Positions 1,854 to 38,703 of a DNA stretch of 64,000 nucleotides are shown here, piece by piece (position 1 is the stretch's first letter; each line of letters opens with the position of its first letter). Position numbers and translations under genes: made by a program. The stretch spans positions 263,353-327,352 of the IMG/VR virus record IMGVR_UViG_3300042549_004104; one strand, given 5' to 3'. The stretch comes from a virus. Taxonomy: Duplodnaviria > Heunggongvirae > Uroviricota > Caudoviricetes. The notes beneath the pieces were generated by a model. That model was given only the letters and a program-made list of their open reading frames with translations. It ran no database searches and was not told the DNA's origin.

Positions 1854-1854
1854 T

Positions 1855-2310
1855 ATGGAACAACAAATACAACAAGCACAATTTGAAAAACGAGTACGTA
1901 TTGCAAAACATGCAAGACGTATGATTTTTGTAACATTTCAAAAAGAGGGTATTCACATGTACCCTGCGGCGGCAACAGATCCAAAACTCGCAACGGGTGA
2001 TGAATATGATGTTAGCTTTTTAGGAACTCCACATCGTCACATATTTCATTTTAATGTGGCGATTGAAGTATTTCACAACGATAGGGATATTGAGTTTATT
2101 CAATTCAAACGCTGGTTAGAAAACCTCTATAAAGGTGGCACACTTGAATTGAATTACAAAAGTTGTGAAATGATTAGTGACGATTTGTATAACCAAATCG
2201 CTACTAGATATCCCGACCGTAGTATTGAAATTACTGTCTCCGAAGATGGTGAGAACGGTGCTACGATTTATTATAACACAACAAAACCTTATCAATCAAT
2301 CGCTATTTAA
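1855..2310 (+). CDS. hypothetical protein within the deazaguanine cluster
   Basis: GGAG Shine-Dalgarno (SD) 8 nt upstream; tightly coupled to dpdA. No QueC (SGGxDS) or QueF (E-S/L-K-S/A-h-K-L/Y-Y/F/W) signature found. Confidence 0.5.
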   Translation: MEQQIQQAQFEKRVRIAKHARRMIFVTFQKEGIHMYPAAATDPKLATGDEYDVSFLGTPHRHIFHFNVAIEVFHNDRDIEFIQFKRWLENLYKGGTLELNYKSCEMISDDLYNQIATRYPDRSIEITVSEDGENGATIYYNTTKPYQSIAI

Positions 2311-2324
2311 AAGGAAAATTAAAA

Positions 2325-2531
2325 ATGGCAAAACCTTCATTTCAACCTAATCCTCGTGTACATCAAATTTTTGAAGATTTGGAAAAGTATTTAGAATTTT
2401 GTGTAGACTATGGATATAAGTTTGACGAAACAACATTATATGATATGCGTAGTTTTCCATATCGTCAACATCAAAAACAATTAGCAGGTAAAGATGCAAA
2501 AAATTCTTGGGATGCTGATACAAGAGTATAA
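2325..2531 (+). CDS. hypothetical small protein
   Basis: AAGGA SD; 68 aa. Confidence 0.4.
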   Translation: MAKPSFQPNPRVHQIFEDLEKYLEFCVDYGYKFDETTLYDMRSFPYRQHQKQLAGKDAKNSWDADTRV

Positions 2532-2533
2532 CA

Positions 2534-3706
2534 ATGCGTAAATTATATTACATGGGTCTTGAGCCTTATAAGGCAAGATACACTTTGCAATTACAAGAGT
2601 GGAATCGTGCTGTCTTTGATAAACGGGGAATTGATTATGTCATTGTTCCCGGTGAAACACTAAGTAACGACCAAGCTATTGTTACTGGTCAAGTATTAGA
2701 TGCACATGGTCGCACATATTTTGGCATGTCACAACTTATGAATTTGATTCGTATGATGAAAGCAGGAGAACTGAACAATGAAGATGTTATCTACTTTGAG
2801 GATATGTTTCAACCCGGTATCGAGAGTCTTCCTTATATACTTAATCAAATCGACAGTATTAATCGTCCTCGCATTTTTGTTCGCTGTCTTGCTCAATCCA
2901 TTGATCCTGATGATTTCGTTCATGTATGGGGCATGTCTGACTTTATGGGTCACTATGAAAAGATGGTTGATTCATTCGTAGATGGTGTTCTTGCTACTAA
3001 TGAAGAAATGGTAATGAATATGAAGATTGCAGGTTGGAAAGCACCAATCTACAATATTTCAGGTCTAGCATTTGGCAAAGAAGAAGTACGTAGTCGTGTT
3101 GGTGAGCTAAAGCTATTTGATAAGCGTAAAAAGCGAATTGCATTCTCTGCACGTTGGGATCAGGAGAAACAACCTGACTTCTACATGGATGTGATTGAAG
3201 AATTTCATAAACGTTTTGAAGATGTAGCAGAATTTTGTGTATTCAGTGGCAGTAAATTAAAGAGTAACAATAGTAGCTATATGGAACGCACTAATCAAAT
3301 GCGTAAAGATGGCAAACTTAAAGTATATGAAGATTTAGAAAAGAATGCCTATTATGAATTACTTAACGATACACGAATTGTATTCAACTGTGCATTACAA
3401 GATTGGGTAAGCAATACAGTAAGTGAAGCAGATGCATTGGGATGTAATGTATGCTACCCGGCATATCGTAGCTTTCCCGAAACGTTTGCTAATGACCACA
3501 CAAGACTGTATACTCCATGGAGTGTAGAAGATGCCGCAATTAAGTTATTCAATATGTTACATCAACCGAGCATAAAGCAAGGTCAAATCAGTGATTGGAA
3601 CAATGGTACTATTGACCGTATTTGTGATATCATGGAAGGCAATGGTGAGCAATGGTTAAGAATGAGTACAGATTATCGCAAGCACACAAGAGAAAGCAAA
3701 TATTAA
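2534..3706 (+). CDS. hypothetical protein, possibly a GT-B-fold glycosyltransferase
   Basis: 390 aa. The C-terminal half has a GT-B-like pattern (RIAFSARWDQEKQPDF ... EADALGCNVCYP, E..E-type motif). The similarity is weak. Confidence 0.45.
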   Translation: MRKLYYMGLEPYKARYTLQLQEWNRAVFDKRGIDYVIVPGETLSNDQAIVTGQVLDAHGRTYFGMSQLMNLIRMMKAGELNNEDVIYFEDMFQPGIESLPYILNQIDSINRPRIFVRCLAQSIDPDDFVHVWGMSDFMGHYEKMVDSFVDGVLATNEEMVMNMKIAGWKAPIYNISGLAFGKEEVRSRVGELKLFDKRKKRIAFSARWDQEKQPDFYMDVIEEFHKRFEDVAEFCVFSGSKLKSNNSSYMERTNQMRKDGKLKVYEDLEKNAYYELLNDTRIVFNCALQDWVSNTVSEADALGCNVCYPAYRSFPETFANDHTRLYTPWSVEDAAIKLFNMLHQPSIKQGQISDWNNGTIDRICDIMEGNGEQWLRMSTDYRKHTRESKY

Positions 3707-3845
3707 TGTCTGAACGTAAAATGATTTTTACTAAAGATATGAGTGTAGGTCTTCCTTGGGAAGAAGGATTACTTGAATGGTTACACGAAAATTATCCTTA
3801 TAGTGGATATCATGTTGTAACATTAATTTAAAATAAGGAATAAAC

Positions 3846-4580
3846 ATGGCAACTTGGAAATTATCAACATACTGGAAGAAAAGTTCAATTGAACGACAGA
3901 TTTGGGTAAAGGATGATAAAGTAATTATCCGTGAAGAAGGTTATCGCTGGGGTACATTCTATGTTCAATCTGATGAACGTCCTCTTACTGATGAAGAATT
4001 AATCAATAAGCATGGGTATGAACTTGGTTGTTTAGACAATGATGAGTGTTGGGAACTAGATAACTTAGATGATGGCTGTTGGGCTGATAATGAAGCAGGT
4101 AGAAATTGTACTGAGGAAGACTTAGAGGCATTTGAAGAAGCCTGGGAAGAAAATTCTTATGAAGGTGTTGAAGAATTAGGTTGGTCTAATGATGACACTG
4201 AGTTTGAATTTCAAGGACCATTAGTGTTGACTAATGAAGATACTGGTGAAGAATTTAATGGTGAGACTATTAAAGAGTCAATGCCAGAAAAAGTAGTAGT
4301 TGAACATAAACCACTAAGTACTACGGCAGCTTGGCCCTTTGGTGATTCAACAGATAAACACATTGAACTTGATCCAGCTAAATGGCCCTCTCCAAATGGT
4401 AATTTTGTAGAAACAGCTAAATGGCCCTTTGATAAATCATCAGAAATTTCTAGCATGAAGTGTACAGAATGTGATTGGACTGGTGATTGGACTGAGACAA
4501 ATAGTAAAGAAATTGATGGGGTAGAATTTGATACTTGTCCTGTATGCAATGGAATAGTTGAAGATAAAGAGGAAGAATAA
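3846..4580 (+). CDS. highly acidic protein with internal AKWP repeats and a C-terminal zinc ribbon (CTECDW...CPVCNG); paralog of 32821-33369
   Basis: Strong AAGGA SD. D/E-rich composition. CxxC...CxxC at the C-terminus. Confidence 0.55.
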   Translation: MATWKLSTYWKKSSIERQIWVKDDKVIIREEGYRWGTFYVQSDERPLTDEELINKHGYELGCLDNDECWELDNLDDGCWADNEAGRNCTEEDLEAFEEAWEENSYEGVEELGWSNDDTEFEFQGPLVLTNEDTGEEFNGETIKESMPEKVVVEHKPLSTTAAWPFGDSTDKHIELDPAKWPSPNGNFVETAKWPFDKSSEISSMKCTECDWTGDWTETNSKEIDGVEFDTCPVCNGIVEDKEEE

Positions 4581-4768
4581 TGGCTACTAAGAAAAAAGTA
4601 AGAATTGAACTATACGCAGAAGCACCTTATATGCAAGGCTATGCATCTGGTATAGCAAATGAAAAGTTTTTTAATCCGTACGCAGACATTGAAAATGCAG
4701 AGGCTGATGCTGATGACTATCAACGTGGATTTGAGAATGCTACAGAAACTGTAGAAAGCGTAGAGTAA
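4580..4768 (+). CDS. hypothetical acidic small protein
   Basis: ATGA-type coupling to the upstream gene; 62 aa. Confidence 0.45.
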   Translation: MATKKKVRIELYAEAPYMQGYASGIANEKFFNPYADIENAEADADDYQRGFENATETVESVE

Positions 4769-4788
4769 TTTAACATAAAGGAAATAAA

Positions 4789-4977
4789 ATGAATGCACAT
4801 AACGATATTAAAACACACTTTGATGAATACTTAATGGAGAACGAAAAGTTTGTCAAAGGTAATTCATCAGCAGGCACACGTGCCCGTAAAGCACTAGCAG
4901 AAATGGCTAAAGCTATTAAAGCACGCCGTAATGAAATTACTGCTGAGAAAGCCGCAAGAAAAGAAGCTAAGGCTTAA
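4789..4977 (+). CDS. small basic Lys/Ala-rich protein (histone-like composition)
   Basis: AAGGA SD. C-terminal half reads KALAEMAKAIKARRNEITAEKAARKEAKA. Confidence 0.45.
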   Translation: MNAHNDIKTHFDEYLMENEKFVKGNSSAGTRARKALAEMAKAIKARRNEITAEKAARKEAKA

Positions 4978-4991
4978 TCTGTGATAAATAC

Positions 4992-5015
4992 TTGTGCAAC
5001 ACAAAGGTTGCACAA
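4992..5015. promoter_or_regulatory. perfect 9-bp inverted repeat (ttgtgcaac-acaaag-gttgcacaa) immediately upstream of folE
   Basis: Palindrome read directly in the sequence. No U-tract follows it. It may be an operator or an RNA hairpin. Confidence 0.4.
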
Positions 5016-5050
5016 TGTCAAAACAAAACACTCACAACGGAGGGTTATCT

Positions 5051-5725
5051 ATGAGTTATAATAAGACAAAAACTGATCCTGAATTAGGATTAAAAGTACA
5101 CGAACATCTAGTCAAGATGGGTGTTGAAACGCCAACCAAACCTGATACTAGGGACCGTAAAGACAAAATTGAATTGATTGAAAGTTATTTTGAAGGCATC
5201 ATGATGGCTTTGGGCCTAGACCTAAGTGATGATAGCTTAATGGACACACCCAAGCGTGTTGCTAAAATGTATGTTAACGAAATTTTCTGGGGATTAGATT
5301 ATGAAGCATTTCCAAAGTGTACGACTGTCGATAACAAGATGCATTACAATGAAATGGTCGTTGAACGCAACGTTAACGTCCAAAGTAATTGCGAACATCA
5401 CTTTGTTGTTATTGATGGGTTGGCTACAGTGGCTTATGTTCCGAAACAAAGAGTCCTCGGACTATCAAAAATTAACCGTATTGTTGAGTATTTCAGCAAA
5501 CGCCCTCAAATCCAAGAGCGACTCACAGAACAAATCTTCCACACTCTCCAATTTATACTGGAGACTGAAGATGTTGCGGTAATGATTGATGCACAACATT
5601 ATTGTGTAAAGTCACGTGGTGTAGAAGATACTGGTAGTAGTACAGTTACAAGTCGTTTAGGTGGTGGGTTCAAAAATGACCCAGCGGCACGTGCTGAGTT
5701 CTATCAAATTGCGAGACAGAAATGA
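5051..5725 (+). CDS. folE: GTP cyclohydrolase I (FolE)
   Basis: Near-identical core to E. coli FolE: CEHHFVVIDG, VLGLSKINRIVEYFSKRPQIQERLTEQI, DAQHYCVKSRG. Start chosen at MSYNKTK because it has a GGAGG SD. The ORF track extends to a GTG at 4994 that lies inside the palindrome. Confidence 0.93.
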   Translation: MSYNKTKTDPELGLKVHEHLVKMGVETPTKPDTRDRKDKIELIESYFEGIMMALGLDLSDDSLMDTPKRVAKMYVNEIFWGLDYEAFPKCTTVDNKMHYNEMVVERNVNVQSNCEHHFVVIDGLATVAYVPKQRVLGLSKINRIVEYFSKRPQIQERLTEQIFHTLQFILETEDVAVMIDAQHYCVKSRGVEDTGSSTVTSRLGGGFKNDPAARAEFYQIARQK

Positions 5726-5940
5726 ATCCAAAGATTAAGGCATTAGAACAACAATGCTGGAGTCATCGTGTAGACGGAGTATTAGTAGATGGTCACTTGC
5801 ATTTTGATACGGCAAAGTTTGCTGAATTGATTGTTAAAGAATGTATCCATGCATGTGTTGCTGACATAGCAGATCCTAGAGATACAATCGAATTTAAATG
5901 TGCAAAGAAAATTAAAGAACATTTTGGAGTTAAAGAATGA
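5722..5940 (+). CDS. HFGVEE-family small protein (paralog 1 of 5)
   Basis: MNxKIKALE N-terminus, KFAELIVKEC core and C-terminal KEHFGVKE. ATGA-coupled to folE. Confidence 0.6.
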   Translation: MNPKIKALEQQCWSHRVDGVLVDGHLHFDTAKFAELIVKECIHACVADIADPRDTIEFKCAKKIKEHFGVKE

Positions 5941-6173
5941 ACGAGAAACTTAGAGAATTTGCTTTAGAAGCAGGCGGCAGTCACTATCCTGAAGTAAATC
6001 CAATGCAATTAAAAAAGTTTGCCGAGTTGATTATTCGTGAATGTGCTGATATTATCAATCATCGTGCTGACACATGCAGTGATTGGTTAGATAGTGTCAA
6101 GGCAAATGAAGCAGTCCGTGAAGGACAAAGAGAGTGTGCTAAAACGATCAAAGAACATTTCGGAGTTGAATAA
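5937..6173 (+). CDS. HFGVEE-family small protein (paralog 2 of 5)
   Basis: KFAELIIREC core and C-terminal KEHFGVE. ATGA-coupled. Confidence 0.6.
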   Translation: MNEKLREFALEAGGSHYPEVNPMQLKKFAELIIRECADIINHRADTCSDWLDSVKANEAVREGQRECAKTIKEHFGVE

Positions 6174-6282
6174 TGATCGATATTATCACATTAATTTGTT
6201 TAATAATAGTTGCTTGGTATATAGCGGGCAAGCTACCAAAAAGTAATTGCAACGGTGATTGCCAACAAGGTCGTAACTGCAC

Positions 6283-6558
6283 GTGCAAATGACAAACCGT
6301 TCACCTTTCAGGAATCAAGAAGAAGCGTTTGCCTTTCTAAGAAAGATAGGCATGAAAAATCGCAGAACACTAACTGGAATTGAACGTGAACACATGTTGT
6401 TAGTATTTGCATTGATTGACCCAATTGAATCTAGCAACAATCAACGAACATTTAGTGAAACTTATCATCATGTCGGTAAAGAATATGAAGTTACATATGG
6501 GTTCAGTGACTCGGGTGAACCCGACCCAATAGTAGAAGAATTGACGGAGTTAGAATGA
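6283..6558 (+). CDS. hypothetical protein
   Basis: ORF only; weak ribosome-binding site. Confidence 0.35.
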   Translation: MQMTNRSPFRNQEEAFAFLRKIGMKNRRTLTGIEREHMLLVFALIDPIESSNNQRTFSETYHHVGKEYEVTYGFSDSGEPDPIVEELTELE

Positions 6559-6765
6559 AACTATATAAGCACAGCAACGGTAAGACACATTTTTTCCCAG
6601 AAGTAATTCCTAAGGGATGGGAAGTTATGTTAAGACCAGATACTTTTGAAGTTGTGTGGCGTAAAATTAGGGGCAGAGAATGAAGGGCTATTATTGTGTA
6701 AAGTGTTTTGGACCGTTTGCTCGTTATCGACAAAACGGTTTGTGGCAGACTAATCATAGGTGCGG

Positions 6766-7236
6766 ATGATGATATTCAATAAGATTAAAGAACTTAAAGA
6801 ACGTGGATTGATTATTGGTATTACCTTTAGTCAATTTGACTTGTTACATGCCGGTCATATTGCAATGCTAAGTGAAGCAAAGAATCACTGTGATTATTTG
6901 ATTGCTGGATTGCAAAACAATGCACAATGGGATAGACCAGAAAAGAATGAACCAATTCAAAGTATTGTAGAACGACAAATAAGTTTGTGTGCGGTACGCA
7001 CAGTAGACGAGATTGTTATCTATAACACAGAGAAGGATTTATCTGACATTCTATTAACACTACCCATTGATGTGCGTATACTAGGTGTTGAATACGCAGA
7101 CAAAGATTTCAGTGGTAAAGAAATCTGTGAAAAACGCAACATTAAAATTATCTATAATGGGCGTGACCATAGTTTTAGTAGCAGTAGCCTACGAAAGAGA
7201 ATTTTGGAAGCCGAACAACAAAAACAAAAGTGGTAA
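6766..7236 (+). CDS. cytidylyltransferase-like nucleotidyltransferase (TagD/RfaE-domain-II-like; HxGH motif)
   Basis: FDLLHAGH (HIGH) motif 20 aa from the N-terminus and about 155 aa long, matching glycerol-3-phosphate cytidylyltransferase and ADP-heptose synthase adenylyltransferase domains. The ORF track starts at a GTG at 6760; the ATG at 6766 is more likely. Confidence 0.7.
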   Translation: MMIFNKIKELKERGLIIGITFSQFDLLHAGHIAMLSEAKNHCDYLIAGLQNNAQWDRPEKNEPIQSIVERQISLCAVRTVDEIVIYNTEKDLSDILLTLPIDVRILGVEYADKDFSGKEICEKRNIKIIYNGRDHSFSSSSLRKRILEAEQQKQKW

Positions 7237-7315
7237 ATAAAGATGACCGGCCTTATGGGCTCATCCCGGTATATAAATTCTGCGTCCTATGCTATAATTA
7301 ACATAGGAGAAAATA

Positions 7316-7879
7316 ATGGCAAACTCATCAACAAATGACTTAATACGTCACCTAGAAGAAAACTTTCAGTCACATCGCTGGAATTCAGCAAGACAATATA
7401 AATTCACAAGTACAAAAGAATATCACGATGCATTTCCATGTGCATATCGTCAATGGCGTGCAGACAGTCATTGCAATATGATTCATGGTTATAGTTTCAG
7501 TATGAAATTCTATTTCGGTACAGACAGTTTAGATGTACGTAACTGGGCGGCTGACTATGGTGGATTAAAAGAATTGAAAAAGATTCTTGAGGATCAATTC
7601 GACCACACCTTGTTAGTAGCACAAGATGATCCAGAACTTGAAACATTCAAAATGTTACAAGAAAAGAAATTGGCTAAGTTAACTATTCTACCACGAATCG
7701 GGTGCGAGAGTTTAGCCGACATGCTTTACAAATATGTCAATGGAGTGTATATTCCAGATATGTGGGGTCAAGGTGAGTCTGACCGTCTATGGTGTTATCG
7801 TGTTGAAGTACGTGAGACACAAGCAAACATGGCTTTCAGAGAAGGTCATCGTGAATGGAATGAAGATTTATTTGCATGA
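7316..7879 (+). CDS. queD: 6-carboxytetrahydropterin synthase-like (QueD/PTPS T-fold)
   Basis: AGGAGA SD. CNMIHGYSF resembles the QueD CxxxHGH zinc site, with one His replaced by Tyr. DHTLL and GCESLADML match downstream QueD/PTPS blocks. Confidence 0.7.
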   Translation: MANSSTNDLIRHLEENFQSHRWNSARQYKFTSTKEYHDAFPCAYRQWRADSHCNMIHGYSFSMKFYFGTDSLDVRNWAADYGGLKELKKILEDQFDHTLLVAQDDPELETFKMLQEKKLAKLTILPRIGCESLADMLYKYVNGVYIPDMWGQGESDRLWCYRVEVRETQANMAFREGHREWNEDLFA

Positions 7880-8112
7880 GTCCTGAACAACGAATCAAAG
7901 CTGCCGAAGAATGGGCTCAACTAAGAGTAGAGGCCGCAGAGCGTGAGCGTGATGAGGCATTGGGCTTAGTTAGTGCGGCACACTTAGAATTGATACATAG
8001 CATCAAGTATGGATTCAATCCTGGTACTGCACATAGCACACTAATTAGTGTGGGTAGATTAAGCCCAATGTTACAAGCAAGAATGAAACGAATGTTAGAA
8101 GAAAAAGAATGA
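7876..8112 (+). CDS. hypothetical protein
   Basis: ATGA-coupled ORF. Confidence 0.4.
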   Translation: MSPEQRIKAAEEWAQLRVEAAERERDEALGLVSAAHLELIHSIKYGFNPGTAHSTLISVGRLSPMLQARMKRMLEEKE

Positions 8113-8621
8113 GTAGCATAGAAAAGAATGATTTGTTTATGATTACATGTAATAATGTATTGCCTTCGTACGGTGAATTTAAAAAAATTATTGACTATGA
8201 AATAGAATATCACCTATATCAAACTGTTCCAAAATATCAATCTTATCCATTCATGCACGAAAAATATTATCATAATGAACTGTTAACTACGTTAATAAAT
8301 TTTACTTTAGACACCTTAAGAAAAAATAATAAATCAGATTTATTTCTAAAATTTTGTTGGTTTAATGTTTGTAAACAAGATTCAGAGTTTCAATGGCATA
8401 CTCATCCAACATCAAACGTATCCGCTATTTATTTTATGGATGGTTGTGAAGATAATGGTACCATACTTGACTATAACGGGACTATATTTCAAATTTTACC
8501 AAAAGAAAATAGTTTATTTATTTTTAATTCAACCATTTCTCATACTATACCAACTTGGAAAAATAAAAATAGATATTCTATTGCCTTAGAATTTCTACCA
8601 AATAAAACAATTAATAATTAA
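8109..8621 (+). CDS. hypothetical protein; possibly a double-stranded beta-helix or oxygenase-like protein
   Basis: ATGA-coupled. His-rich patches (WHTHPTS, ISHTIP). Assignment is weak. Confidence 0.45.
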   Translation: MSSIEKNDLFMITCNNVLPSYGEFKKIIDYEIEYHLYQTVPKYQSYPFMHEKYYHNELLTTLINFTLDTLRKNNKSDLFLKFCWFNVCKQDSEFQWHTHPTSNVSAIYFMDGCEDNGTILDYNGTIFQILPKENSLFIFNSTISHTIPTWKNKNRYSIALEFLPNKTINN

Positions 8622-8804
8622 GAAAAAATATGGTCAAACCAATTAAATTATGGCGTATATGGGCAAAAGCCTTAGGTGAAAAAACGGGAGCTACAAACAC
8701 AGAAGCTGACCACATCGCTTGCATCCGTACAGCAATAGTGATATCATATATTATAACAAACTGTTTTATTATAGCAGGCGTTATACGACATTGGTAATAA
8801 AATT

Positions 8805-9647
8805 ATGAATAAACTAAAAATATCAGAACTGTTTTACAGTGTACAAGGTGAAGGAAGATACATGGGTGTGCCAAGCGTGTTCTTACGCACGTTTGGTTGT
8901 AACTTTAAATGTGCTGGCTTCGGTATGTCTAAAGGAATGGAAAGTACAGAAAGGTTTAAAATAAATGCAGAAACTATTAAATCTTATAAATCACTACCAC
9001 TTGTTAGTACTGGATGTGATAGCTATGCGAGTTGGGATCCACGCTTCAAACATCTCAGTCCTTATTACGACATTGATACTATTGCCGATAATATTGTCAA
9101 TTTACTTCCTCATGGTCGTTGGAAAGATGAGCACTTGGTTATTACGGGTGGTGAGCCGCTCTTAGGCTGGCAACGTGAATATCCAGAGTTGTTATCACAT
9201 GATAATATGCGTGGATTACAAGAAATAACATTTGAAACTAATGGTACACAAATGTTATATCCTGAATTAGTTAATTATTTAAATGAATGGAAGAAACACC
9301 GCTATTTACATTGTCTAACATTCAGCGTAAGTCCTAAACTAAGTATCAGTGGTGAAAATTGGGAAGATGCTATTTGTCCCGATGTTGTTCAACAATATTA
9401 CAATACTGGTTATACTTATTTGAAATTTGTTGTAGCAACTAAAGAAGATGCAGAAGAAGCTGAACAAGCAGTTAATGAATATCGCAAACGTGGATTTAAA
9501 GGTCCTGTGTATCTTATGCCTTGCGGTGGTGTTACAGAACTTTATAATCTTAATAACAGAAAAGTTGCAGAACTTGCAATGCAAAAGGGTTGGCGCTATA
9601 GTGACAGACTACAAGTCCCGTTGTTCAAAAACGAATGGGGAACTTGA
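8805..9647 (+). CDS. queE: 7-carboxy-7-deazaguanine synthase-like radical-SAM protein (QueE family)
   Basis: The N-terminal ELFYSVQGEGRYMGVPSVFLRTFGCNFKC aligns with QueE (E.F.S.QGEG..G.P..F.R..GC...C), and VITGGEPLL matches the SAM-binding GGEP block. The third Cys of the canonical Cx3Cx2C is not in the usual place, so this is a divergent QueE. Confidence 0.7.
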   Translation: MNKLKISELFYSVQGEGRYMGVPSVFLRTFGCNFKCAGFGMSKGMESTERFKINAETIKSYKSLPLVSTGCDSYASWDPRFKHLSPYYDIDTIADNIVNLLPHGRWKDEHLVITGGEPLLGWQREYPELLSHDNMRGLQEITFETNGTQMLYPELVNYLNEWKKHRYLHCLTFSVSPKLSISGENWEDAICPDVVQQYYNTGYTYLKFVVATKEDAEEAEQAVNEYRKRGFKGPVYLMPCGGVTELYNLNNRKVAELAMQKGWRYSDRLQVPLFKNEWGT

Positions 9648-9916
9648 TGTTCGGAAGTAATTACAACGACTATAGAACAAAGTTAGGATATAATCCTAAA
9701 TTATCAACTGAAGCTGAATGGACATTTTACAAAACAGCAACATGGACAAAACAGTTTGCATGGTTGCCTCATCGGTGTAATCTTACTAAAAAATATATTT
9801 GGTTAGAAAATGCGTATAAAGGAACAGCAGAATATAGAGTTGATGATAATCATTTTATAAGTGAACATACATGGCATAATTATGACGAACACATTATTTG
9901 GGAATTACAAAGATGA
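9635..9916 (+). CDS. hypothetical protein
   Basis: ORF overlapping the queE stop. Confidence 0.4.
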   Translation: MGNLMFGSNYNDYRTKLGYNPKLSTEAEWTFYKTATWTKQFAWLPHRCNLTKKYIWLENAYKGTAEYRVDDNHFISEHTWHNYDEHIIWELQR

Positions 9917-10101
9917 TTGAACTACGCTGGTTAATACAAGCTGGGTGGGACGGACCCGAACAAGTATTGCAATATAGACAAAATCGTGATATAATAGACT
10001 ATAGCAGAAAAGATAGTAATGGTTCTTTTCTAAAGACAACTGAAATAACAGAGTGGATCACAGTACCCACAGTAGATGAGGTATGGAATGCAGATTTATG
10101 A
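9898..10101 (+). CDS. hypothetical protein
   Basis: Overlapping, coupled ORF. Confidence 0.35.
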   Translation: MGITKMIELRWLIQAGWDGPEQVLQYRQNRDIIDYSRKDSNGSFLKTTEITEWITVPTVDEVWNADL

Positions 10102-10820
10102 CAACTAAATCAATTAAAATAGCAGTTTTAATAGTAGGAGAATATCGTACATTTGCACAATGTAGGAGAACTATGACTTTCCTAAATGATCCTAAGGTAG
10201 ATGTATATTTTAGTACATGGGATACAACCAATACCCTTAATCCATTAATTAATAAGATAGGACCGTATGCAATTAAACCAAGAAAAGTATCATTTGAGGA
10301 AATACAACGAGCATTGAATATACCACATGCTACTATAAAAATTCACAAAAAACCAGAACACAATGATACTTTTTTAATAATGCGAGAGGGTTGGTTTTTA
10401 GGAATGCAAATGGTTATAGATTCAGGTAAAGATTATGATTTTATTTATGTTATGAGACCTGATTTATATTATGAGAATAAATTTGTGTTTAAAGATATTA
10501 ATTACAATGAGTATGAGAACAATATAGGTCTTTTATATATTCCCGATGAAAATAATAATGCTGACGATACTTCATTCTTTTCAACATATTCTAACATTAA
10601 AAAATTATTAAATACAGATGTGTTAAAAATACATCAAACCCCGGAAGAAGGAAATTTACACGTTGTATGGTTTAAATATATATCTGATAAAGGATTCTCC
10701 TTTACTAAAATGCCGTACAGTTCAAGTTATGTTATTGGTAGATATCCAATAACAAATAACACTACTTGGGAAGAGGCATTCACACAGTATTGGAATTTAT
10801 TTCATAACAGACCAATATGA
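10083..10820 (+). CDS. hypothetical protein (245 aa)
   Basis: Coupled to the neighbouring sugar-module genes. Confidence 0.45.
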   Translation: MECRFMTTKSIKIAVLIVGEYRTFAQCRRTMTFLNDPKVDVYFSTWDTTNTLNPLINKIGPYAIKPRKVSFEEIQRALNIPHATIKIHKKPEHNDTFLIMREGWFLGMQMVIDSGKDYDFIYVMRPDLYYENKFVFKDINYNEYENNIGLLYIPDENNNADDTSFFSTYSNIKKLLNTDVLKIHQTPEEGNLHVVWFKYISDKGFSFTKMPYSSSYVIGRYPITNNTTWEEAFTQYWNLFHNRPI

Positions 10821-12193
10821 ACTATAATAAACTAGTTATATTTGATTTAGATGGGGTATTGATAGAAAGTAAGGAACTGCATTATGATTCCTTGAATTTA
10901 TCATTAAGTAAATTAAGTCCTAAGCATATAATTTCCAGGGAAGAGCATTTAAGTGTATATGATGGATTGACCACTACTAACAAACTTGAATTACTAGCTC
11001 ATAAAAAAGGATTGAATAGGGGACTGTTTGATACTATCTGGCAAGAAAAACAAAAAGCAACAATAGATTTATTATTGCAGACTAGTGAAAATTTATTATT
11101 AAAAAGTATTTTTCGTACCCTATCTGAGCATGGAATAAAAATAGCAGTTGCTAGTAACAGTATAAGAAAATCATTACAAATATCTCTTTTAAAATTAGGT
11201 ATTTTAGAATATATTGATTTCTATGTTTCTAATCAAGATGTGAGTAAAGCTAAACCATTTCCAGAAATGTATTGGAAATGCATGACACAATTAAATGCTA
11301 TCCCAAAAACAACTATAATTATAGAAGATAGTCATATTGGTAGACAGGCTGCATTAGATTCTGGTGCACAATTATTACCTGTTAATACACCTGAAGATGT
11401 GAACGAAGAATTATTAAAACAAATACTGTCAGCATTCGATGGTAAATATATAACAAAAGTACCCTGGAGAAATAATAAAATGAATGTTTTGATTCCAATG
11501 GCAGGTGCAGGTAGTAGATTTGCACAAGCAGGATATTCGTTTCCTAAACCATTAATTGAAGTTAATAGAAAACCGATGATTCAGGTGGTGATAGAAAATT
11601 TGAATATTGAAGCACGTTATATATTCTTAGTTCAAAAAGAACACTATGAAAAATATAATTTAAAACAATTATTAAATATACTCACTCCAAACTGTGAGAT
11701 TGTTCAAGTAGATGGTGTGACAGAAGGCGCCGCAGTAACTACTTTATTAGCAAAAGAATATATTAATAACAATGAGCCATTATTAATAGCAAATTCAGAC
11801 CAATACGTAGAGTGGAATAGTAATGAATGTTTATATAGTTTTACTACCGATCAAATTGACGGTGGAATCGTAACATTTAAATCAACACATCCTAAATGGT
11901 CTTTTGCTAAATTAGGAGAAGATGGGTTTGTTGCTGAAGTAGCAGAAAAAAATCCAATAAGTGATAATGCAACAGTTGGGATATATTATTGGAAACATGG
12001 TAAAGATTATGTCAAGTATGCAGAACAAATGATACAAAACAATACTAGAGTGAATAATGAATTTTATGTTTGCCCAGTGTTCAATGAAGCAATAAAAGAT
12101 AATAAGAAAATCAAAATCAAAGAAATAGAAAAAATGTGGGGCATCGGTACTCCTGAAGATTTATTATATTTTTTGAATAATCACAAAGAATGA
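10817..12193 (+). CDS. bifunctional HAD-superfamily phosphatase / sugar-phosphate nucleotidyltransferase
   Basis: N-terminal HAD motif I VIFDLDGVLIES with a beta-PGM-like layout. The C-terminal half has VLIPMAGAGSRFAQAGYSFPKPLIEV, typical of GT-A-fold NDP-sugar pyrophosphorylases and cytidylyltransferases. Confidence 0.7.
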   Translation: MNYNKLVIFDLDGVLIESKELHYDSLNLSLSKLSPKHIISREEHLSVYDGLTTTNKLELLAHKKGLNRGLFDTIWQEKQKATIDLLLQTSENLLLKSIFRTLSEHGIKIAVASNSIRKSLQISLLKLGILEYIDFYVSNQDVSKAKPFPEMYWKCMTQLNAIPKTTIIIEDSHIGRQAALDSGAQLLPVNTPEDVNEELLKQILSAFDGKYITKVPWRNNKMNVLIPMAGAGSRFAQAGYSFPKPLIEVNRKPMIQVVIENLNIEARYIFLVQKEHYEKYNLKQLLNILTPNCEIVQVDGVTEGAAVTTLLAKEYINNNEPLLIANSDQYVEWNSNECLYSFTTDQIDGGIVTFKSTHPKWSFAKLGEDGFVAEVAEKNPISDNATVGIYYWKHGKDYVKYAEQMIQNNTRVNNEFYVCPVFNEAIKDNKKIKIKEIEKMWGIGTPEDLLYFLNNHKE

Positions 12194-12660
12194 AATTAAT
12201 AGCACATAGGGGACTGGTAAAAGGTCCTGACAAAATATTAGAAAACACTCCTAAGCAAATTGAGTTCGCAATAAAGGAAGGATTTGACTGTGAGGTTGAT
12301 ATATGGTCTATCGATAATGTTTATTATTTAGGTCATGACGATCCTGAATATAGAATAGATAAAGATTTTTTATCCAATCCTCATTTATGGTTACATGCTA
12401 AAAACATAGAAGCACTGGACAAATTATCATTGACTAGCTTTAATTTTTTCTGGCACCAAAATGACGATTACACATTAACTAGTCATAGATATATTTGGAC
12501 ATATCCAGGTAAATCAATGTCACGACATAGTATTATGGTTATGCCAGAATGGCAAAATAGTTCTTTTAGTAACTTATATGACCAAAATTGCTATGGTATT
12601 TGTAGTGATTACGTGTATAATATAAGAGAACAAATGAGAACAAATGAGAACATACGATAA
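12190..12660 (+). CDS. glycerophosphodiester phosphodiesterase (GDPD)-like protein, short form
   Basis: N-terminal IAHRGL..PENT...EFAIKEGFDCEVDIW....LGHDD matches the GDPD HR(G)...E.D...HD signature. At 156 aa it is truncated relative to canonical GDPD. Confidence 0.5.
   Translation: MKLIAHRGLVKGPDKILENTPKQIEFAIKEGFDCEVDIWSIDNVYYLGHDDPEYRIDKDFLSNPHLWLHAKNIEALDKLSLTSFNFFWHQNDDYTLTSHRYIWTYPGKSMSRHSIMVMPEWQNSSFSNLYDQNCYGICSDYVYNIREQMRTNENIR
12622..12651. repeat. short tandem repeat gagaacaaat x2 followed by gagaacatac at a gene junction
   Basis: Read directly in the sequence. It duplicates the ATGAGAACA start context of the next gene. Confidence 0.6.
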
Positions 12661-14005
12661 ACGAATTGGCTTCTTAGTAAGCTATCAAACACTTATACCC
12701 CACGGTGGTATCGGTCAATTCACTAAGAGTTTTATTGAACTAATGGATCAGCATAACATAAAAGTTGATATCATTACTGACAAGGAATTAAATCCTGAGA
12801 ATCAAGACTTCATCAACGAGCTAGGTCTAGGTAAGTTTCAACCACCTACAGTTATTACCCCTGAGAAGTCTCTACCATACACCACACATAGCAACATCTT
12901 TATGTATGGTGATACTTTTAACTATGAGCGTATGGCTAACTTCCGTAATAGTATTATTAAGGCACTTGAAAATAATTTGTATGATGCACTCATTTGTAAT
13001 ACATACGAAACAGTGCAGGTTGCGAGTACAATGGGGTTAGAAGATTGCATCCAAATCATTGCATATACTCATTTAGAAAGTCAAATCTTTAAGGATACAA
13101 AGAATCCTTTCTTAAACAATACCAATGTAATGATGCGTCAGCAACTTACTACACCAGGTATATCTGTTGGAACACAAAGCAAATACAATTGGCTTAACCT
13201 AGATGAATCATCTTATCATTTACCTATCCCAATTACTGAACGAGGATTACTAGAAGAACATCACAACCCACGTGAAGGCGTATTGTTTGTTGGTCGCTGG
13301 GAAGAAGGTAAGAATCCAGAATTGTTTTGTGATTTGATTGAACAAACAAAACTCCCAGCTAAAGTAATGACTAGTGCAAATGGTGCTAAGAAATTCGAAG
13401 GACGATTAAAGAAGATTGGGGTACCCTATGAAATCAAAGTGGGTATCATTGGTCAAGAAAAGGTAAACTTTATCACAAGTGCTAGAGTTGCATTCAATCC
13501 TAGCACAGTAGAGAGTTATGGTATGGCATTCTATGAGCAAACAACTCAATTACCAACATTCTGTTTAGAGAATCAACGCTGGACTAATAACTTTAAAGGA
13601 CAATTCTTTTTTGAAACTAATAAAAAGAACATGGCAGTAGATGTTAAGGGTGCATACGATACATTCTCAACTGCAAAAGAATGGTACAGTCATGGGTCAC
13701 TACTACACACTATACAATTAGAAAAAAATGTATTTCATAAATGGAATGAATGTTTTAATGAGTTTAAACCAAAACAATCTAATAGCAACACTGCTAAGAT
13801 TTTAGAAAACACTACAGTCAAACACAGTGATTACATCAAAGATTTGAATCGCAGTTTAATTTGTATTGATGATATCCGTAGCGTCTTGACCAATAAACAC
13901 AAGTATCGTGTAATCTATACAGACAACGAAACTTATCTGACTAAGGATCCAAGTTACGAACCAATAGAAGAGGCAATAGGTATAAACCTATTTGATTTTG
14001 CATGA
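12644..14005 (+). CDS. GT-B-fold glycosyltransferase (GT4-like)
   Basis: The LFVGRWEEGKNPELF block resembles the GT4 donor-binding region. 453 aa. Confidence 0.5.
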   Translation: MRTYDKRIGFLVSYQTLIPHGGIGQFTKSFIELMDQHNIKVDIITDKELNPENQDFINELGLGKFQPPTVITPEKSLPYTTHSNIFMYGDTFNYERMANFRNSIIKALENNLYDALICNTYETVQVASTMGLEDCIQIIAYTHLESQIFKDTKNPFLNNTNVMMRQQLTTPGISVGTQSKYNWLNLDESSYHLPIPITERGLLEEHHNPREGVLFVGRWEEGKNPELFCDLIEQTKLPAKVMTSANGAKKFEGRLKKIGVPYEIKVGIIGQEKVNFITSARVAFNPSTVESYGMAFYEQTTQLPTFCLENQRWTNNFKGQFFFETNKKNMAVDVKGAYDTFSTAKEWYSHGSLLHTIQLEKNVFHKWNECFNEFKPKQSNSNTAKILENTTVKHSDYIKDLNRSLICIDDIRSVLTNKHKYRVIYTDNETYLTKDPSYEPIEEAIGINLFDFA

Positions 14006-14826
14006 AGAAAATTTTAATCACAGGTAACTCAGGCTACATCGGCAGTCATTTAAGTAAGATGTTGAATGACGAATACGAAGTCTATGGATTAGACAAAGTA
14101 GGTCCTCAATTCAAAGTTAAGAAACATTATAATCTTGACATTAAAAGCCAGCTTAAAGTCAATGAAGAATTTGATTGTATCATTCATTTAGCCGCACTAG
14201 TCAATGTAGGCGAGAGTGAACTACAGCCTACAGACTACTACATGACTAATTTGTTTGGGACATTGAATATCCTACAACATATTAAAACAAAGAACTTTAT
14301 ATTTGCTAGTACTGGTGCAGCCGAAAAGTGTGAAAGTGCTTATGGTGTTAGTAAACGGGCAACAGAAGATTGTGTAAGAGAATTCTGTCAAGTAAACAAA
14401 GTTCCATTTACTACATTTAGATTTTACAACGTAATTGGCAGTGATGGATTCAAACCTACCAATCCTGATGGCTTGATGTATAATATAATGAGAGCTCCTA
14501 AACTAGGATATTTTAATATCTTTGGTAACGATTATGCAACTAAAGACGGTACTTGCGTTAGAGATTATGTACATGTTAATGAAATTTGTAACAGTATCAA
14601 GTTAGCGATTGAAACACCTAGTAATAGTTTAGAGAACTTAGGTCATGGGGTAGGAAATACTGTTAAAGAAATGGTCGAATTGTTCAAACAGGTTAACCAA
14701 ACTGATTTTGAAATACGATATACTAACCGAAGAGAAGGTGATATTGAATACAGTGTGCTTAATAATCCAAGTTCATATATGAGAAAAGTATACACTATCG
14801 AGGATTTGCTAAAAGTTGACAATTAA
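14002..14826 (+). CDS. NAD-dependent epimerase/dehydratase (SDR family, UDP-sugar 4-epimerase-like)
   Basis: N-terminal ILITGNSGYIGSHL Rossmann GxxGxxG. YxxxK-type region (AYGVSKRA). ATGA-coupled. Confidence 0.8.
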   Translation: MKKILITGNSGYIGSHLSKMLNDEYEVYGLDKVGPQFKVKKHYNLDIKSQLKVNEEFDCIIHLAALVNVGESELQPTDYYMTNLFGTLNILQHIKTKNFIFASTGAAEKCESAYGVSKRATEDCVREFCQVNKVPFTTFRFYNVIGSDGFKPTNPDGLMYNIMRAPKLGYFNIFGNDYATKDGTCVRDYVHVNEICNSIKLAIETPSNSLENLGHGVGNTVKEMVELFKQVNQTDFEIRYTNRREGDIEYSVLNNPSSYMRKVYTIEDLLKVDN

Positions 14827-14850: not shown

Positions 14851-15870
14851 ATGACTAATCAAAACATTAAACGTATTGGCTTTGCTTGCAAGTGGGCAGA
14901 GATTAACAAAAAAGGTGAAATAGTCAGTACTCAGGGACTGAATACTGGCGGCACTACTATGGCATGGGCCAAACGCAATAAGCGTTCTACAGTGGAGGAA
15001 AAAATTATTGATGTTGCTAAAACTAATATCAATAATACTCATGCACTGATTAAGAAAGTTGCAGAATTACCCCCTGAACTACGTATGTTGCGATTAACTA
15101 GTGACATGTTGTCATTCTACACACATGAGGACTACTCATACTTTTGGCAAGATACTAATACACAAGATAGTCTAGCACGTTGGTTTGCACCCTTAGGTGA
15201 GACTGCACGTAAGCATGATATCCGACTAAGTTTTCATCCCGATCAATTTGTTGTATTAGCAAGCGACCGTGACGAGGTAGTAAATAAGAGTATAACTGAA
15301 TTTGAATATCACTGTGACATGGTGCGTTGGTTAGGCTATGGCAAAACATTTCAAGACTTCAAAGTTAACGTACACATTAGTGGCCGTAAAGGCCCTCAAG
15401 GCATCAGGGATGTGTATGGTAGGTTATCACCTGAAGCACGAAACACACTTACATTAGAAAACGAGGAATATACACATGGAGTCATTGACTGCCTTTCATT
15501 ATCTGATCTTGTCCCAACTGTTCTTGACATTCATCACCATTGGATTAGGGAGGGCGAATATATTAGCCCCGATTCGGAGATTGTTAACCGTGTTGTTGAT
15601 AGTTGGAGGAATGTCCGTTCTACTTTACATTATTCCGTCAGTCGGGAAGATGTACTTGGAGAACATGACCGATCTGTCGCACCCAATCATGGTGCGTTGA
15701 TTGAATCAGGACACAGTAAACAAAAATTACGTGCCCATTCAGATTACTATTGGAATGATGCAGTGAACGATTGGGCATTGACATTCCTTGATAAATTTGA
15801 TATAATGTGCGAAAGCAAAGCTAAGAACTTAGCCAGCTTTAAATTATACGAGAGAGTAAAAAATGTTTGA
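14851..15870 (+). CDS. uvdE: UV DNA damage endonuclease (UvdE/UVDE family)
   Basis: Blocks RLSFHPDQFVVLAS, TLENEEYTH, LDIHHHW and HSDYYW match UvdE TIM-barrel motifs (RTSFHPNQF, TLENDDKTYT, FDFHHF, HADYV). Confidence 0.8.
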   Translation: MTNQNIKRIGFACKWAEINKKGEIVSTQGLNTGGTTMAWAKRNKRSTVEEKIIDVAKTNINNTHALIKKVAELPPELRMLRLTSDMLSFYTHEDYSYFWQDTNTQDSLARWFAPLGETARKHDIRLSFHPDQFVVLASDRDEVVNKSITEFEYHCDMVRWLGYGKTFQDFKVNVHISGRKGPQGIRDVYGRLSPEARNTLTLENEEYTHGVIDCLSLSDLVPTVLDIHHHWIREGEYISPDSEIVNRVVDSWRNVRSTLHYSVSREDVLGEHDRSVAPNHGALIESGHSKQKLRAHSDYYWNDAVNDWALTFLDKFDIMCESKAKNLASFKLYERVKNV

Positions 15871-16276
15871 CAAATTAAAGAACTTATTCAAGAAAACAGA
15901 AAAGCCTGTTGAATCTAAGAAGCCAACTAAAGCAAAAACTAAGGCTCCAACTAAAGAATTAAGTCTTAAAGAAAAAGCAACACAAGCCGGGGAACCCTAC
16001 ATCAATATTTTAAGTTTAGATATTGATCCCAAAGATATCAACAGCGGTGCATTTGATTTAGACTTTAATGAAATTTTTGTAGCAAGATTAGTCAAAGCTG
16101 GTTACATGATGAGTAAGGATGACAAGGATACTGATATCGTAGATAGATGGTTCCAGCAAGTTTGTAGAAATGTAGTACTTGAGATGTATGAGCAAGTACA
16201 AGCGGATCCCATGAACCGTGACATTCGCCCTATCCAATCACGTGACCTTGGCAATGGACGTACAGAGGTGAGTTAA
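15863..16276 (+). CDS. hypothetical protein with a Lys-rich N-terminus
   Basis: ORF overlapping the uvdE stop. Confidence 0.45.
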   Translation: MFDKLKNLFKKTEKPVESKKPTKAKTKAPTKELSLKEKATQAGEPYINILSLDIDPKDINSGAFDLDFNEIFVARLVKAGYMMSKDDKDTDIVDRWFQQVCRNVVLEMYEQVQADPMNRDIRPIQSRDLGNGRTEVS

Positions 16277-38596: not shown

Positions 38597-38703
38597 CCCA
38601 ATTATATACAAATATTTTACGTAATCATATAAAATAGATATATACATGTAGATGCTGTAAAGGTCTACAGTTTTAAAAATCTTGCTTAACAAAGGAGAAC
38701 ATT

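Follow-up and report, generated by a model that had tools for sequence, protein, structure and literature searches.

We analysed a 64,000-nucleotide stretch of a tailed-phage genome (Caudoviricetes; IMG/VR record IMGVR_UViG_3300042549_004104, positions 263,353 to 327,352), hereafter the window, with a focus on one block of co-directional, plus-strand open reading frames (ORFs) at 273-14826, in which genes for making 7-deazaguanine and exchanging it into DNA are interleaved with genes for sugar activation and glycosyl transfer. The whole genome is probably larger than 300 kb; the window covers 64 kb of it, and negative results for the window refer to those 64 kb only. Since related contigs span 300-524 kb, the phage belongs to a jumbo lineage, one that is abundant in metagenomes. 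All of the relatives came from protein comparisons; a megablast search of 50,697 phage records with the 12.3-kb region returned no match. Unless another set is named, counts of presence or absence refer to the 171 related loci first examined.

An original prediction, drawn from the letters of the window, had listed six sugar-type genes in this block and proposed that their products decorate the inserted deazaguanine. All six ORFs lie where it had placed them, co-oriented on the plus strand, and the eight consecutive ORFs from QueE (starting at 8805) to the short-chain dehydrogenase/reductase (SDR; ending at 14826) overlap their neighbors by 4-19 nt. As one set, the six hold in part: two glycosyltransferases (GTa and GTb), a cytidylyltransferase-like gene (CTase) and the SDR form a conserved core, whereas 10083-12660 is a recent cassette. 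The co-localization of sugar and deazaguanine genes is not due to chance, because it is seen again in hundreds of viral contigs as well as in cultured phages that are unrelated.

Gene content of the cluster

Judging from its genes, the base pathway is of the type known from Cellulophaga phage phiST, ending in 7-deazaguanine (dDG), because DpdL is accompanied by DpdA, FolE, QueD and QueE and the window lacks QueC. No ORF anywhere in the 64 kb carries the PP-loop motif SGGxDS, and the PP-loop family seen in relatives is TilS-like ATP_bind_3, not QueC. DpdL is defined by the signature LxxxHRHxF in place of the QueD motif CxxxHGH (Hutinet et al. 2023, PMC10516641), and the window protein carries it as L-GTP-HRH-I-F (FLGTPHRHIFHF). 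By tblastn, this protein is 34.7% identical (E 3e-9) to phiST CGPG_00067 and 56% identical (E 1e-39) to the DpdL of Acidovorax phage ACP17, and it matches phrog_17812 (E 9e-37). Its role as a decarboxylase is a proposal, with the activity unproven in the literature, and the dG of phiST DNA is fully replaced by plain dDG (PMC10516641). The QueE of the window shows a weak Radical_SAM match in addition to its NCBIfam assignment.

DpdA lies 1 nt from DpdL. As a single sequence it has no match to the Pfam tRNA-guanine transglycosylase (TGT) family; a profile of 7 phage DpdA sequences matches Z. mobilis TGT structures (E 7e-4), with the invariant residues D103 and D302 aligned to the catalytic TGT residues D102 (within DSGGFQ) and D280. 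DpdA was found in 103 of the related loci, and the window protein is 32% identical to the homologue of Pseudomonas jumbo phage PA5oct. Because BLASTP against phiST DpdA3 (CGPG_00065) gave no meaningful alignment (E 0.14), we do not place it in the DpdA3 subfamily; at 526 amino acids (aa) it is also far longer than the phiST protein (259 aa). From its context and from the DNA of phiST and PA5oct, we infer that it exchanges G in DNA for 7-deazaguanine. PA5oct DNA resists restriction enzymes with G in their sites, the modified G being left unidentified in that study (PMC12191111). The deazaguanine genes named by the original prediction are thus borne out by profiles and the invariant catalytic aspartates, and its inventory needs the addition of DpdL, which it had not named. 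With DpdL present and QueC absent from the window, a base of the dDG type is expected, and not the simple dCDG or dPreQ0 type that it had mentioned.

GTa, previously called a putative GT-B protein, scores below the gathering threshold for Pfam Glycos_transf_1 (E 1.8e-3, 18.2 bits against 26.4), and a few close homologues do bear the precomputed PF00534 assignment. An AlphaFold2 (AF2) model built from 58 sequences of both a freshwater clade and a second viral clade (pLDDT 80, pTM 0.79) shows two Rossmann domains in a GT-B fold. The structure-based check thus upholds the GT-B call: Foldseek against PDB returns retaining GT4 enzymes at E about 1e-10, namely BshA, PimB', MshA, glycogen synthase and TarM (E 6e-11 to 1e-9, TM 0.55-0.67), with LmbT, SenB and WaaG as further structural neighbors. 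Among viral models, the best are an ACP17 protein and the 370-aa A0A889IQ48 (TM 0.74-0.84). Across 58 homologues of 19-95% identity, E10, R15, Y16, T17, D90, D127 and E142 are invariant, as are R207, E211, K212, E298, S313 and E316 in the C-terminal part; the arginine, lysine and acidic residues among them would form the diphosphate site and the donor-binding EX7E region. Fold and invariant donor-site residues together argue for an active nucleoside-diphosphate (NDP)-sugar transferase, without revealing the acceptor. A free base as acceptor is weakly favored, because several of the top structural matches act on small molecules.

The second glycosyltransferase, GTb, likewise falls short of the Glycos_transf_1 cut-off (17.9 bits against 26.4). 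Its GT4 motifs GGIGQF, GRWEEGK and E290-x7-E298 are invariant in 30 homologues, which together with the weak family match sustains the earlier GT4-like call. It occurs in 112 related loci, always after QueE. The AF2 model of GTb is unusable (pLDDT 50, shallow alignment), and its profile found no match in PDB. Erwinia jumbo phages and Xanthomonas phage BUDD contain distant GTb homologues with no deazaguanine genes nearby, a context that is uninformative.

Two further core genes could supply the sugar donor. CTase, for which the ATG at 6766 chosen earlier is in frame with the 6760 start used here, was described as TagD/RfaE-like with an HxGH motif; this assignment agrees with its HAGH motif and its CTP_transf_like score (40.7 bits, cut-off 21). 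Scores for the narrower equivalogs are below cut-off, both for RfaE domain II (62.6 against 181.5; E 3e-17) and for TagD (53.5 against 165.4; E 2e-14), and its PDB matches are ethanolamine-phosphate and glycerol-3-phosphate cytidylyltransferases. CTase is present in 94 related loci, traveling with the cluster, and presumably activates a sugar phosphate or polyol phosphate. The SDR, found in 136 related loci, was called an epimerase, in keeping with its match to Pfam Epimerase (107 bits, cut-off 20.9); it is nearest to GalE. It does not reach the GalE equivalog TIGR01179 (E 5e-47, 160 bits against 262), and 274 aa is short for GalE. An ADP-heptose route combining an RfaE-like nucleotidyltransferase with an HldD-like SDR was considered and rejected, the SDR matching GalE (E 5e-47) far better than heptose 6-epimerase (E 9e-17); heptose-type activation by the nucleotidyltransferase alone is compatible with the data.

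Smaller and accessory genes fill the remaining intervals. The s68 family (124 members, no Pfam match) always lies between DpdL and GTa, in the freshwater clade and in the second viral clade alike. The protein ac244 is rich in D and E, with repeated W-P-F/W-E motifs and a C-terminal CxxC...CxxC, and matched nothing in Pfam, PHROG or NCBIfam above noise. Neither s93 nor s67 matched any family. Redox enzymes recur in the QueD-QueE interval: the window has a 2-oxoglutarate (2OG)-Fe(II) oxygenase there, and 11 other loci have a DAO-type oxidoreductase dependent on flavin adenine dinucleotide (e.g. L086:16603-17781). The oxygenase was rejected as a general maker of a hydroxyl acceptor, because it is present only here and in one near-identical contig (L094) among the 171 loci; the redox enzymes of this interval may represent lineage-specific tailoring of the base or the sugar.

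Table 1. Features of the cluster and its downstream flank (window coordinates)
Feature	Position	Strand	Basis or occurrence
DpdA-type DNA guanine transglycosylase, 526 aa, long form	273-1853	+	DSGGFQ motif; family profile
DpdL, proposed 7-carboxy-7-deazaguanine decarboxylase, QueD paralogue	1855-2310	+	LxxxHRHxF motif; homology
s68, conserved 68-aa protein between DpdL and GTa	2325-2531	+	124-member family
GTa, putative GT-B, GT4-like retaining-type glycosyltransferase	2534-3706	+	AF2 model; Foldseek; weak Pfam match
ac244, acidic 244-aa accessory protein	3846-4580	+	about 32-35 related loci, same position
FolE, GTP cyclohydrolase I	4994-5725	+	Pfam GTP_cyclohydroI, E 9e-61
CTase, HIGH-superfamily HxGH nucleotidyltransferase, RfaE-domain-II/TagD-like	6760-7236	+	CTP_transf_like, E 3e-10
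QueD, 6-carboxytetrahydropterin synthase	7316-7879	+	Pfam PTPS, E 3e-16; TIGR03367, E 6e-9
2OG-Fe(II) oxygenase, strain-specific accessory	8109-8621	+	2OG-FeII_Oxy_5, E 1.5e-8
QueE, 7-carboxy-7-deazaguanine synthase, radical SAM	8805-9647	+	NCBIfam QueE, E about 3e-14
s93 and s67, small ORFs (93 and 67 aa) joining QueE to GTb	9635-10101	+	82 and 49 related loci
Cassette, 2.54-kb low-GC insertion	10105-12642	.	blastn against L094
p245, first cassette gene	10083-10820	+	no family assignment
HAD + sugar-1-phosphate nucleotidyltransferase fusion	10817-12193	+	HAD_2, E 2e-27, beta-phosphoglucomutase-like
p156, phrog_34507, GDPD-like by motif only	12190-12660	+	phrog_34507, E 2e-25
GTb, second GT4-like glycosyltransferase	12644-14005	+	weak Glycos_transf_1 match; invariant motifs
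GalE-like extended SDR, NDP-hexose 4-epimerase or dehydratase type	14002-14826	+	Epimerase, E 1e-30
UvdE UV-damage endonuclease; 137-aa protein; HNH/NUMOD3 homing endonuclease	14851-15870; 15863-16276; 16276-17640		UvdE, E 6e-38

Linkage across viruses and exchange of sugar genes

In IMG/VR, GTa at 74-84% identity occurs in more than 600 loci, and GTb in 175. Cluster order is conserved in the 78 fetched loci that have both: DpdA, DpdL, s68, GTa, (ac244), s62b, FolE, CTase, QueD, QueE, s93, s67, GTb, SDR. Where the SDR or CTase has been relocated in related loci, it stays inside the cluster; for example, the SDR holds another place within it in L051 and L106, and in the second clade it is located upstream of DpdA. 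A scan for distant GTa proteins, seeded with sequences about 22% identical, yielded 80 viral loci, 79 with a callable GTa. The invariant GTa residues are kept in these distant homologues, and DpdL lies immediately upstream of GTa in 75 of the 79 loci, with DpdA (67), FolE (61), QueE (53), SDR (33) and CTase (23) within 7 kb.

Cultured phages with otherwise different genomes display the same association. GTa lies inside DpdA/DpdL/QueE clusters of Acidovorax phage ACP17, Xanthomonas phages BUDD and X1, Burkholderia phage BCSR5, PA5oct and Sinorhizobium phage Phosso, and these clusters adjoin DNA polymerase, RecA or primase genes. In the T4-like cyanophage BUCT-ZZ01, a contiguous block reads QueE, phosphoribosyltransferase (PRT), hypothetical, QueD, FolE, GTb, DpdA, DpdL, GTa. 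Its proteins are 38% (GTb, between FolE and DpdA), 37% (DpdL), 65% (GTa) and 49% (annotated QueE) identical to those of the window, and its DpdA carries HADSGGLQ; the gene order is rearranged relative to the window, with both glycosyltransferases still inside the block. Linkage across such deep divergence supports the earlier claim that glycosyltransferase and sugar-activation genes are functionally part of the deazaguanine module.

GTa is a viral gene in the main, and a common one: metagenomes hold at least 8,000 GTa sequence clusters at 90% identity (freshwater and marine viromes), and 185,579 prokaryotic genomes gave 5 matches, all on contigs of metagenome-assembled genomes (MAGs). DpdL is beside GTa in three of these five, two of which also have FolE, QueD and QueE. 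DpdL occurs without GTa in phiST and, within 12 kb either side, in RHph_I1_18, Ahp1, Bakedbeans and D479. GTa is almost never found without DpdL. Such an asymmetry would be expected of GTa as an enzyme that uses what the DpdL branch produces.

Around this scaffold, the sugar enzymes vary. At equivalent cluster positions, relatives encode a fusion of a CTP_transf-like domain with a mannose-6-phosphate-isomerase cupin (40 loci), a P-loop kinase with a nucleotidyltransferase fragment (42), a eukaryotic-type phosphomannomutase (22), a DegT-family aminotransferase (21) and a class II aldolase/epimerase (16). A conserved DpdA-DpdL-glycosyltransferase scaffold whose sugar toolkit can be swapped is what diversifying selection on a glycan decoration would be expected to produce.

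Relatives also carry other genes in the cluster. A type I PRT is found in 69 loci as well as in BUCT-ZZ01, and a gene of the IMP dehydrogenase (IMPDH)/GMP-reductase type in 16; L066:4311-4859, L038:7871-8944 and L001:10081-10542 are examples from these two families. Since PRT and GMP-reductase families act on 7-carboxy-7-deazaguanine (CDG) in tubercidin biosynthesis, this hints at a nucleotide-level route to deazapurine nucleotides parallel to the DpdA exchange. A conserved protein of about 170 aa, not present in the window, lies between DpdA and DpdL in many relatives and just upstream of DpdA in ACP17 (L002:7216-7701 and 84 viral loci, e.g. L250:4780-5298). In Vibrio phage Bakedbeans, the DpdL domain makes up the C-terminal third of the 383-aa gp176 (L010:11221-12372), whose N-terminal 260 or so residues could be a fused partner activity.

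The window itself records one acquisition of sugar genes. Compared by blastn with the near-identical contig L094 (insertion against L094:5516-5499), it shows 97% identity up to 10104, 95.8% from 12643 and none between. Because L094 matches both flanks and lacks the middle, 10105-12642 is a clean, recent insertion directly upstream of GTb; it has a GC content of 29.7%, the window as a whole 36%. The first gene, p245, has no Pfam, PHROG, NCBIfam or PDB match and is not in any of the related loci. Among 1.84 billion representatives it has 190 relatives, and the 52 scanned show occasional fusions to HAD-hydrolase or APH-type kinase domains. The second gene has essentially no homologues in the related loci and is 61-65% identical to proteins of T4-like cyanophages (B3 gp358, S-CAM9); both domains of the fusion named by the original prediction, HAD and NDP-sugar pyrophosphorylase, were found. 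The third, p156, has seven weak matches only (25-33% identity) in the related loci and is 45-49% identical to the gene right after the fusion in cyanophages B3 and S-CAM9, where the pair sits in glycosyltransferase-rich islands without deazaguanine genes. Its earlier description as a truncated glycerophosphodiester phosphodiesterase (GDPD) finds no support: there is no Pfam match at E<=10 and no PDB relative, the likeness being confined to an HRG..ENT..ExD..HD motif seen by eye. The suggested glycerol-phosphate appendage had hung on this call and falls with it, as hidden Markov models lend it no support.

Being a clean insertion shared with cyanophage glycan islands, the cassette is best described, from its predicted gene functions, as a mobile sugar-nucleotide supply unit. 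Relative to L094, GTb is 91% and the 67-aa ORF 84% identical at the aa level, against 98-100% for QueD, QueE, s93 and the SDR. The greater divergence of GTb and the 67-aa ORF compared with their neighbors suggests a recombination event that introduced the cassette along with another GTb allele. Relatives show 0.7-3 kb gaps at fixed cluster positions, which suggests that mobile or accessory genes often enter the cluster.

The SDR is followed by genes for a UvdE UV-damage endonuclease (E 6e-38) and a 137-aa protein, an arrangement shared by about 75-95 related loci; in the window, an HNH/NUMOD3 homing endonuclease downstream of this pair breaks synteny with L094. Farther along, at 37185-40593, lie genes for a full-length DnaK/Hsp70 (E 2e-259) and for a ClpX-like AAA+ protein. 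A GT2-family glycosyltransferase (60229-60948, E 3e-18) lies 45 kb from the deazaguanine cluster, next to a metallophosphoesterase and a LysM plus GH19/chitinase-class-I protein (59323-60207, 61507-63159). This GT2 gene is a better candidate for a surface- or wall-directed enzyme than the glycosyltransferases of the cluster.

A proposed glycosylated 7-deazaguanine and its alternatives

We consider it fairly probable that the cluster at 273-14826 is a single DNA-hypermodification module whose product is a glycosylated 7-deazaguanine in virion DNA. On homology grounds, GTP is converted to CDG by FolE, QueD and QueE, and DpdL, the proposed decarboxylase, would turn CDG into 7-deazaguanine; DpdA would then exchange G in phage DNA for the deazapurine, as in phiST. 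Their linkage suggests that the two GT4-type enzymes attach one or more sugars to the deazaguanine, with GTa, universally paired with DpdL, as the constant enzyme and GTb, which is lineage-specific, possibly adding a second sugar. The HxGH nucleotidyltransferase and the GalE-like SDR would make or epimerize the NDP-sugar donor, and the cassette (p245, the phosphomutase-nucleotidyltransferase fusion and p156) may provide a further or different donor upstream of GTb. The gene set is compatible with a mannose-, galactose- or heptose-type donor.

Two routes can be envisaged. In the first, GTa would glycosylate the free base at its 2-amino group, a reaction for which HuiG of huimycin biosynthesis offers a chemical precedent, and an enlarged DpdA would insert the glycosyl-base; DpdA is 416-541 aa long in every GTa-encoding phage examined, against 259 aa in phiST. 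In the second, GTa would act on dDG already in DNA, at N2 or at the electron-rich C7/C8. In either case, the modification would protect virion DNA from restriction enzymes and other DNA-targeting defences, and defences that recognize modified DNA could drive the diversification of the sugar among relatives. By extension, and with about even confidence, we expect guanine to be replaced by glycosylated 7-deazaguanine in the cultured phages PA5oct, ACP17, X1/BUDD, BCSR5, Phosso, BUCT-ZZ01 and their relatives, the sugar varying through cassette swaps, with GTa as the missing factor in DpdL reconstitution and a genomic marker of the modification.

Several points weigh against a glycosylated deazaguanine. 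It is predicted from genes, and dDG offers no hydroxyl of the kind to which the sugar is attached in every DNA glycosylation known, so that an unusual N- or C-glycosidic linkage would be needed. The decarboxylase activity of DpdL is itself only proposed. The structures nearest to GTa are generic GT4 enzymes acting on small molecules or polymers, and proteins labeled 'DNA alpha-GT' rank 17th and 25th among viral models (TM about 0.5). GTa is acidic (pI 5.4-6.2), a property that does not discriminate, since DpdA is acidic too; net charge was therefore rejected as a sign of DNA binding. Furthermore, the freshwater clade and the second clade have many other gene families in common, so part of the conservation reflects common descent; given this shared descent, the independent evidence for linkage comes from the T4-like phages and the rearrangements. 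Finally, the fusion and p156 of the cassette occur in cyanophage glycan islands having no deazaguanine genes, and Iyer et al. (2021, PMC7824862) take such islands for surface-polysaccharide systems.

One alternative, already raised for host surface glycans by the original prediction, is that the cluster glycosyltransferases and sugar-nucleotide enzymes remodel such glycans (lipopolysaccharide (LPS), capsule, teichoic acid) or glycosylate virion proteins, with the deazaguanine genes as neighbors merely because both groups are early or accessory. It is the default annotation, homologues being called 'glycosyltransferase involved in cell wall biosynthesis' by JGI; the paper on phage X1 treats phage glycosyltransferases as surface modifiers; and TarM, WaaG and PimB' are among the structural neighbors of GTa. 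Moreover, the HAD-nucleotidyltransferase/p156 cassette derives from cyanophage islands that Iyer et al. (PMC7824862) interpret as serving O-antigen diversification. However, GTa stays adjacent to DpdL down to 22% identity, through rearrangements and on unrelated genome backbones, and is virtually never found away from it, in clusters placed within replication modules. The hosts involved have differing envelopes (Pseudomonas, Acidovorax, Xanthomonas, Burkholderia, Sinorhizobium and Synechococcus, in addition to contigs binned with gut Bacteroides and Ructibacterium MAGs), and the window has its separate GT2 gene beside lysis-type genes. We thus regard surface remodeling as unlikely.

Slightly less credible is a helper role, in which GTa is required for making or inserting plain dDG, for example through a transient glycosylated or carrier-bound intermediate or as a structural partner of the long DpdA, and the final base is dDG. 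DpdL and DpdA of ACP17 gave no dDG in E. coli, and the authors suggested that further enzymes may be required (PMC10516641); GTa sits between DpdA and DpdL in ACP17 and PA5oct; and the long DpdA accompanies GTa in all GTa-encoding phages examined. The phiST pair failed in E. coli likewise (PMC10516641), so the failure is not specific to phages with GTa, and phiST makes 100% dDG without it. A helper role would also leave the second glycosyltransferase, the SDR, the nucleotidyltransferase and the varied sugar-tailoring genes unexplained.

Slightly more doubtful still is the idea that the module yields a free deazapurine glycoside or nucleoside resembling huimycin, dapiramicin or tubercidin, or a modified nucleotide pool, and leaves deazaguanine in DNA undecorated; the product would inhibit functions of the host or of competitors, or would be a precursor for the polymerase to incorporate. 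GTa does resemble GT4 enzymes with small-molecule acceptors, for which HuiG offers a precedent, and relatives and BUCT-ZZ01 carry a PRT, some also a GMP-reductase/IMPDH-type gene, the two families used on CDG in tubercidin biosynthesis. Those genes are absent from the window, however, DpdA is present in nearly all clusters with both catalytic aspartates intact, and phiST and PA5oct show that this type of pathway ends in DNA. Very improbable, lastly, is glycosylation of another base such as a hydroxymethylated pyrimidine in T-even style, with the linkage reflecting a general DNA modification island: phage DNA glycosylation is so far known from hydroxylated pyrimidines only (PMC13326640, bioRxiv 10.1101/2023.12.21.572611) and some phages hold several modification systems, but scanning the window ORFs revealed neither a thymidylate-synthase-like hydroxymethylase nor a cytosine methyltransferase or TET-type enzyme, the one 2OG oxygenase present is strain-specific, and GTa tracks DpdL specifically.

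A glycosylated 7-deazaguanine thus remains our preferred reading. A full-text search of a literature collection found no glycosylated deazaguanine in DNA and no glycosyltransferase linked to DpdA or DpdL, in line with the claim that a sugar-decorated deazaguanine would be an undescribed modification; the word 'glycosyl' is absent from the paper defining DpdL (PMC10516641). If the reading is true, a sugar-bearing purine analogue would be known from a genome for the first time, as a new chemical class of purine hypermodification that joins the fields of deazaguanine modification and DNA glycosylation. To our knowledge, 7-deazaguanine DNA modifications are all small at C7 (cyano, amido, aminomethyl, methyl- or formyl-aminomethyl, carboxy and hydrogen), and every DNA glycosylation we know of sits on a hydroxylated pyrimidine. 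GTa could explain the failed DpdL/DpdA reconstitution and could bear on the modified G of PA5oct. The prediction is directly testable by mass spectrometry without new isolates, because cultured phages carry the GTa module, among them phages of Pseudomonas aeruginosa, plant pathogens and cyanobacteria; viromes from freshwater and from the sea hold the module in great abundance. The prediction also bears on how modification-dependent defences recognize these phages, on artefacts of sequencing and restriction resistance, and on enzymes for DNA labeling, and it advises caution in the automatic annotation of phage glycosyltransferases as cell-wall or LPS genes.

Comparison with known systems

A sugar on a 7-deazaguanine derivative has a parallel in mammalian tRNA, where mannosyl- and galactosyl-queuosine carry it on the hydroxyl of the cyclopentenediol. 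The likeness is one of description; the nucleic acid there is RNA rather than DNA, and the pathway in the window cannot make the cyclopentenediol.

In phage DNA, the familiar precedent is T4, whose alpha- and beta-glucosyltransferases have a GT-B fold, use NDP-sugars and act on 5-hydroxymethylcytosine (5hmC), with the glycosyltransferase beside modified-base genes. Phage systems with glycosylated 5hmC or 5-hydroxycytosine have recently been described as well (PMC13326640, bioRxiv 10.1101/2023.12.21.572611). The cluster in the window has in common with phage DNA glycosylation systems a GT-B enzyme, modified-base genes as neighbors and sugar-supply genes that vary between relatives. Their acceptor is a hydroxyl on a modified pyrimidine, whereas here it would be a deazapurine without one, and no hydroxymethylase was seen among the window ORFs scanned. 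The analogy to T4 glucosylation drawn by the original prediction therefore holds loosely: dDG has no hydroxyl, and GTa shows no specific kinship with T4-type DNA glucosyltransferases, being no nearer to DNA alpha-GT-like proteins than to generic GT4 enzymes.

Another point of comparison is the biosynthesis of huimycin and dapiramicin, in which a GT4-type enzyme is likewise clustered with deazaguanine synthesis genes (FolE, QueD, QueE and QueC with HuiG). HuiG (PF13439) N-glycosylates the 2-amino group of the 7-deazaguanine-derived base in huimycin (PMC7439116; bioRxiv 10.64898/2026.04.15.718813). These are actinomycete secondary metabolites built on preQ0, with O-methylation, without DpdA and released as free products, and GTa is likened to HuiG by description. 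The cyanophage sugar and glycosyltransferase islands (PMC7824862) supply relatives of the cassette, the fusion and p156 being 45-65% identical to proteins of Synechococcus phages B3 and S-CAM9, and HIGH-family nucleotidyltransferases and cupin isomerases are shared themes. Those islands lie in hypervariable accessory regions with no deazaguanine genes, whereas here the cassette is inside a deazaguanine operon.

The phiST dDG system (Hutinet et al. 2023, PMC10516641) has the same FolE, QueD, QueE, DpdL and DpdA functions and also lacks QueC. Its cluster is without a glycosyltransferase, SDR or nucleotidyltransferase, its DNA contains plain dDG, and the DpdA of the window is twice as long. On genomic evidence, what is new at the present locus is that sugar genes are tied to a predicted phiST-type dDG pathway, which would combine two known kinds of chemistry, deazaguanine modification and DNA glycosylation.

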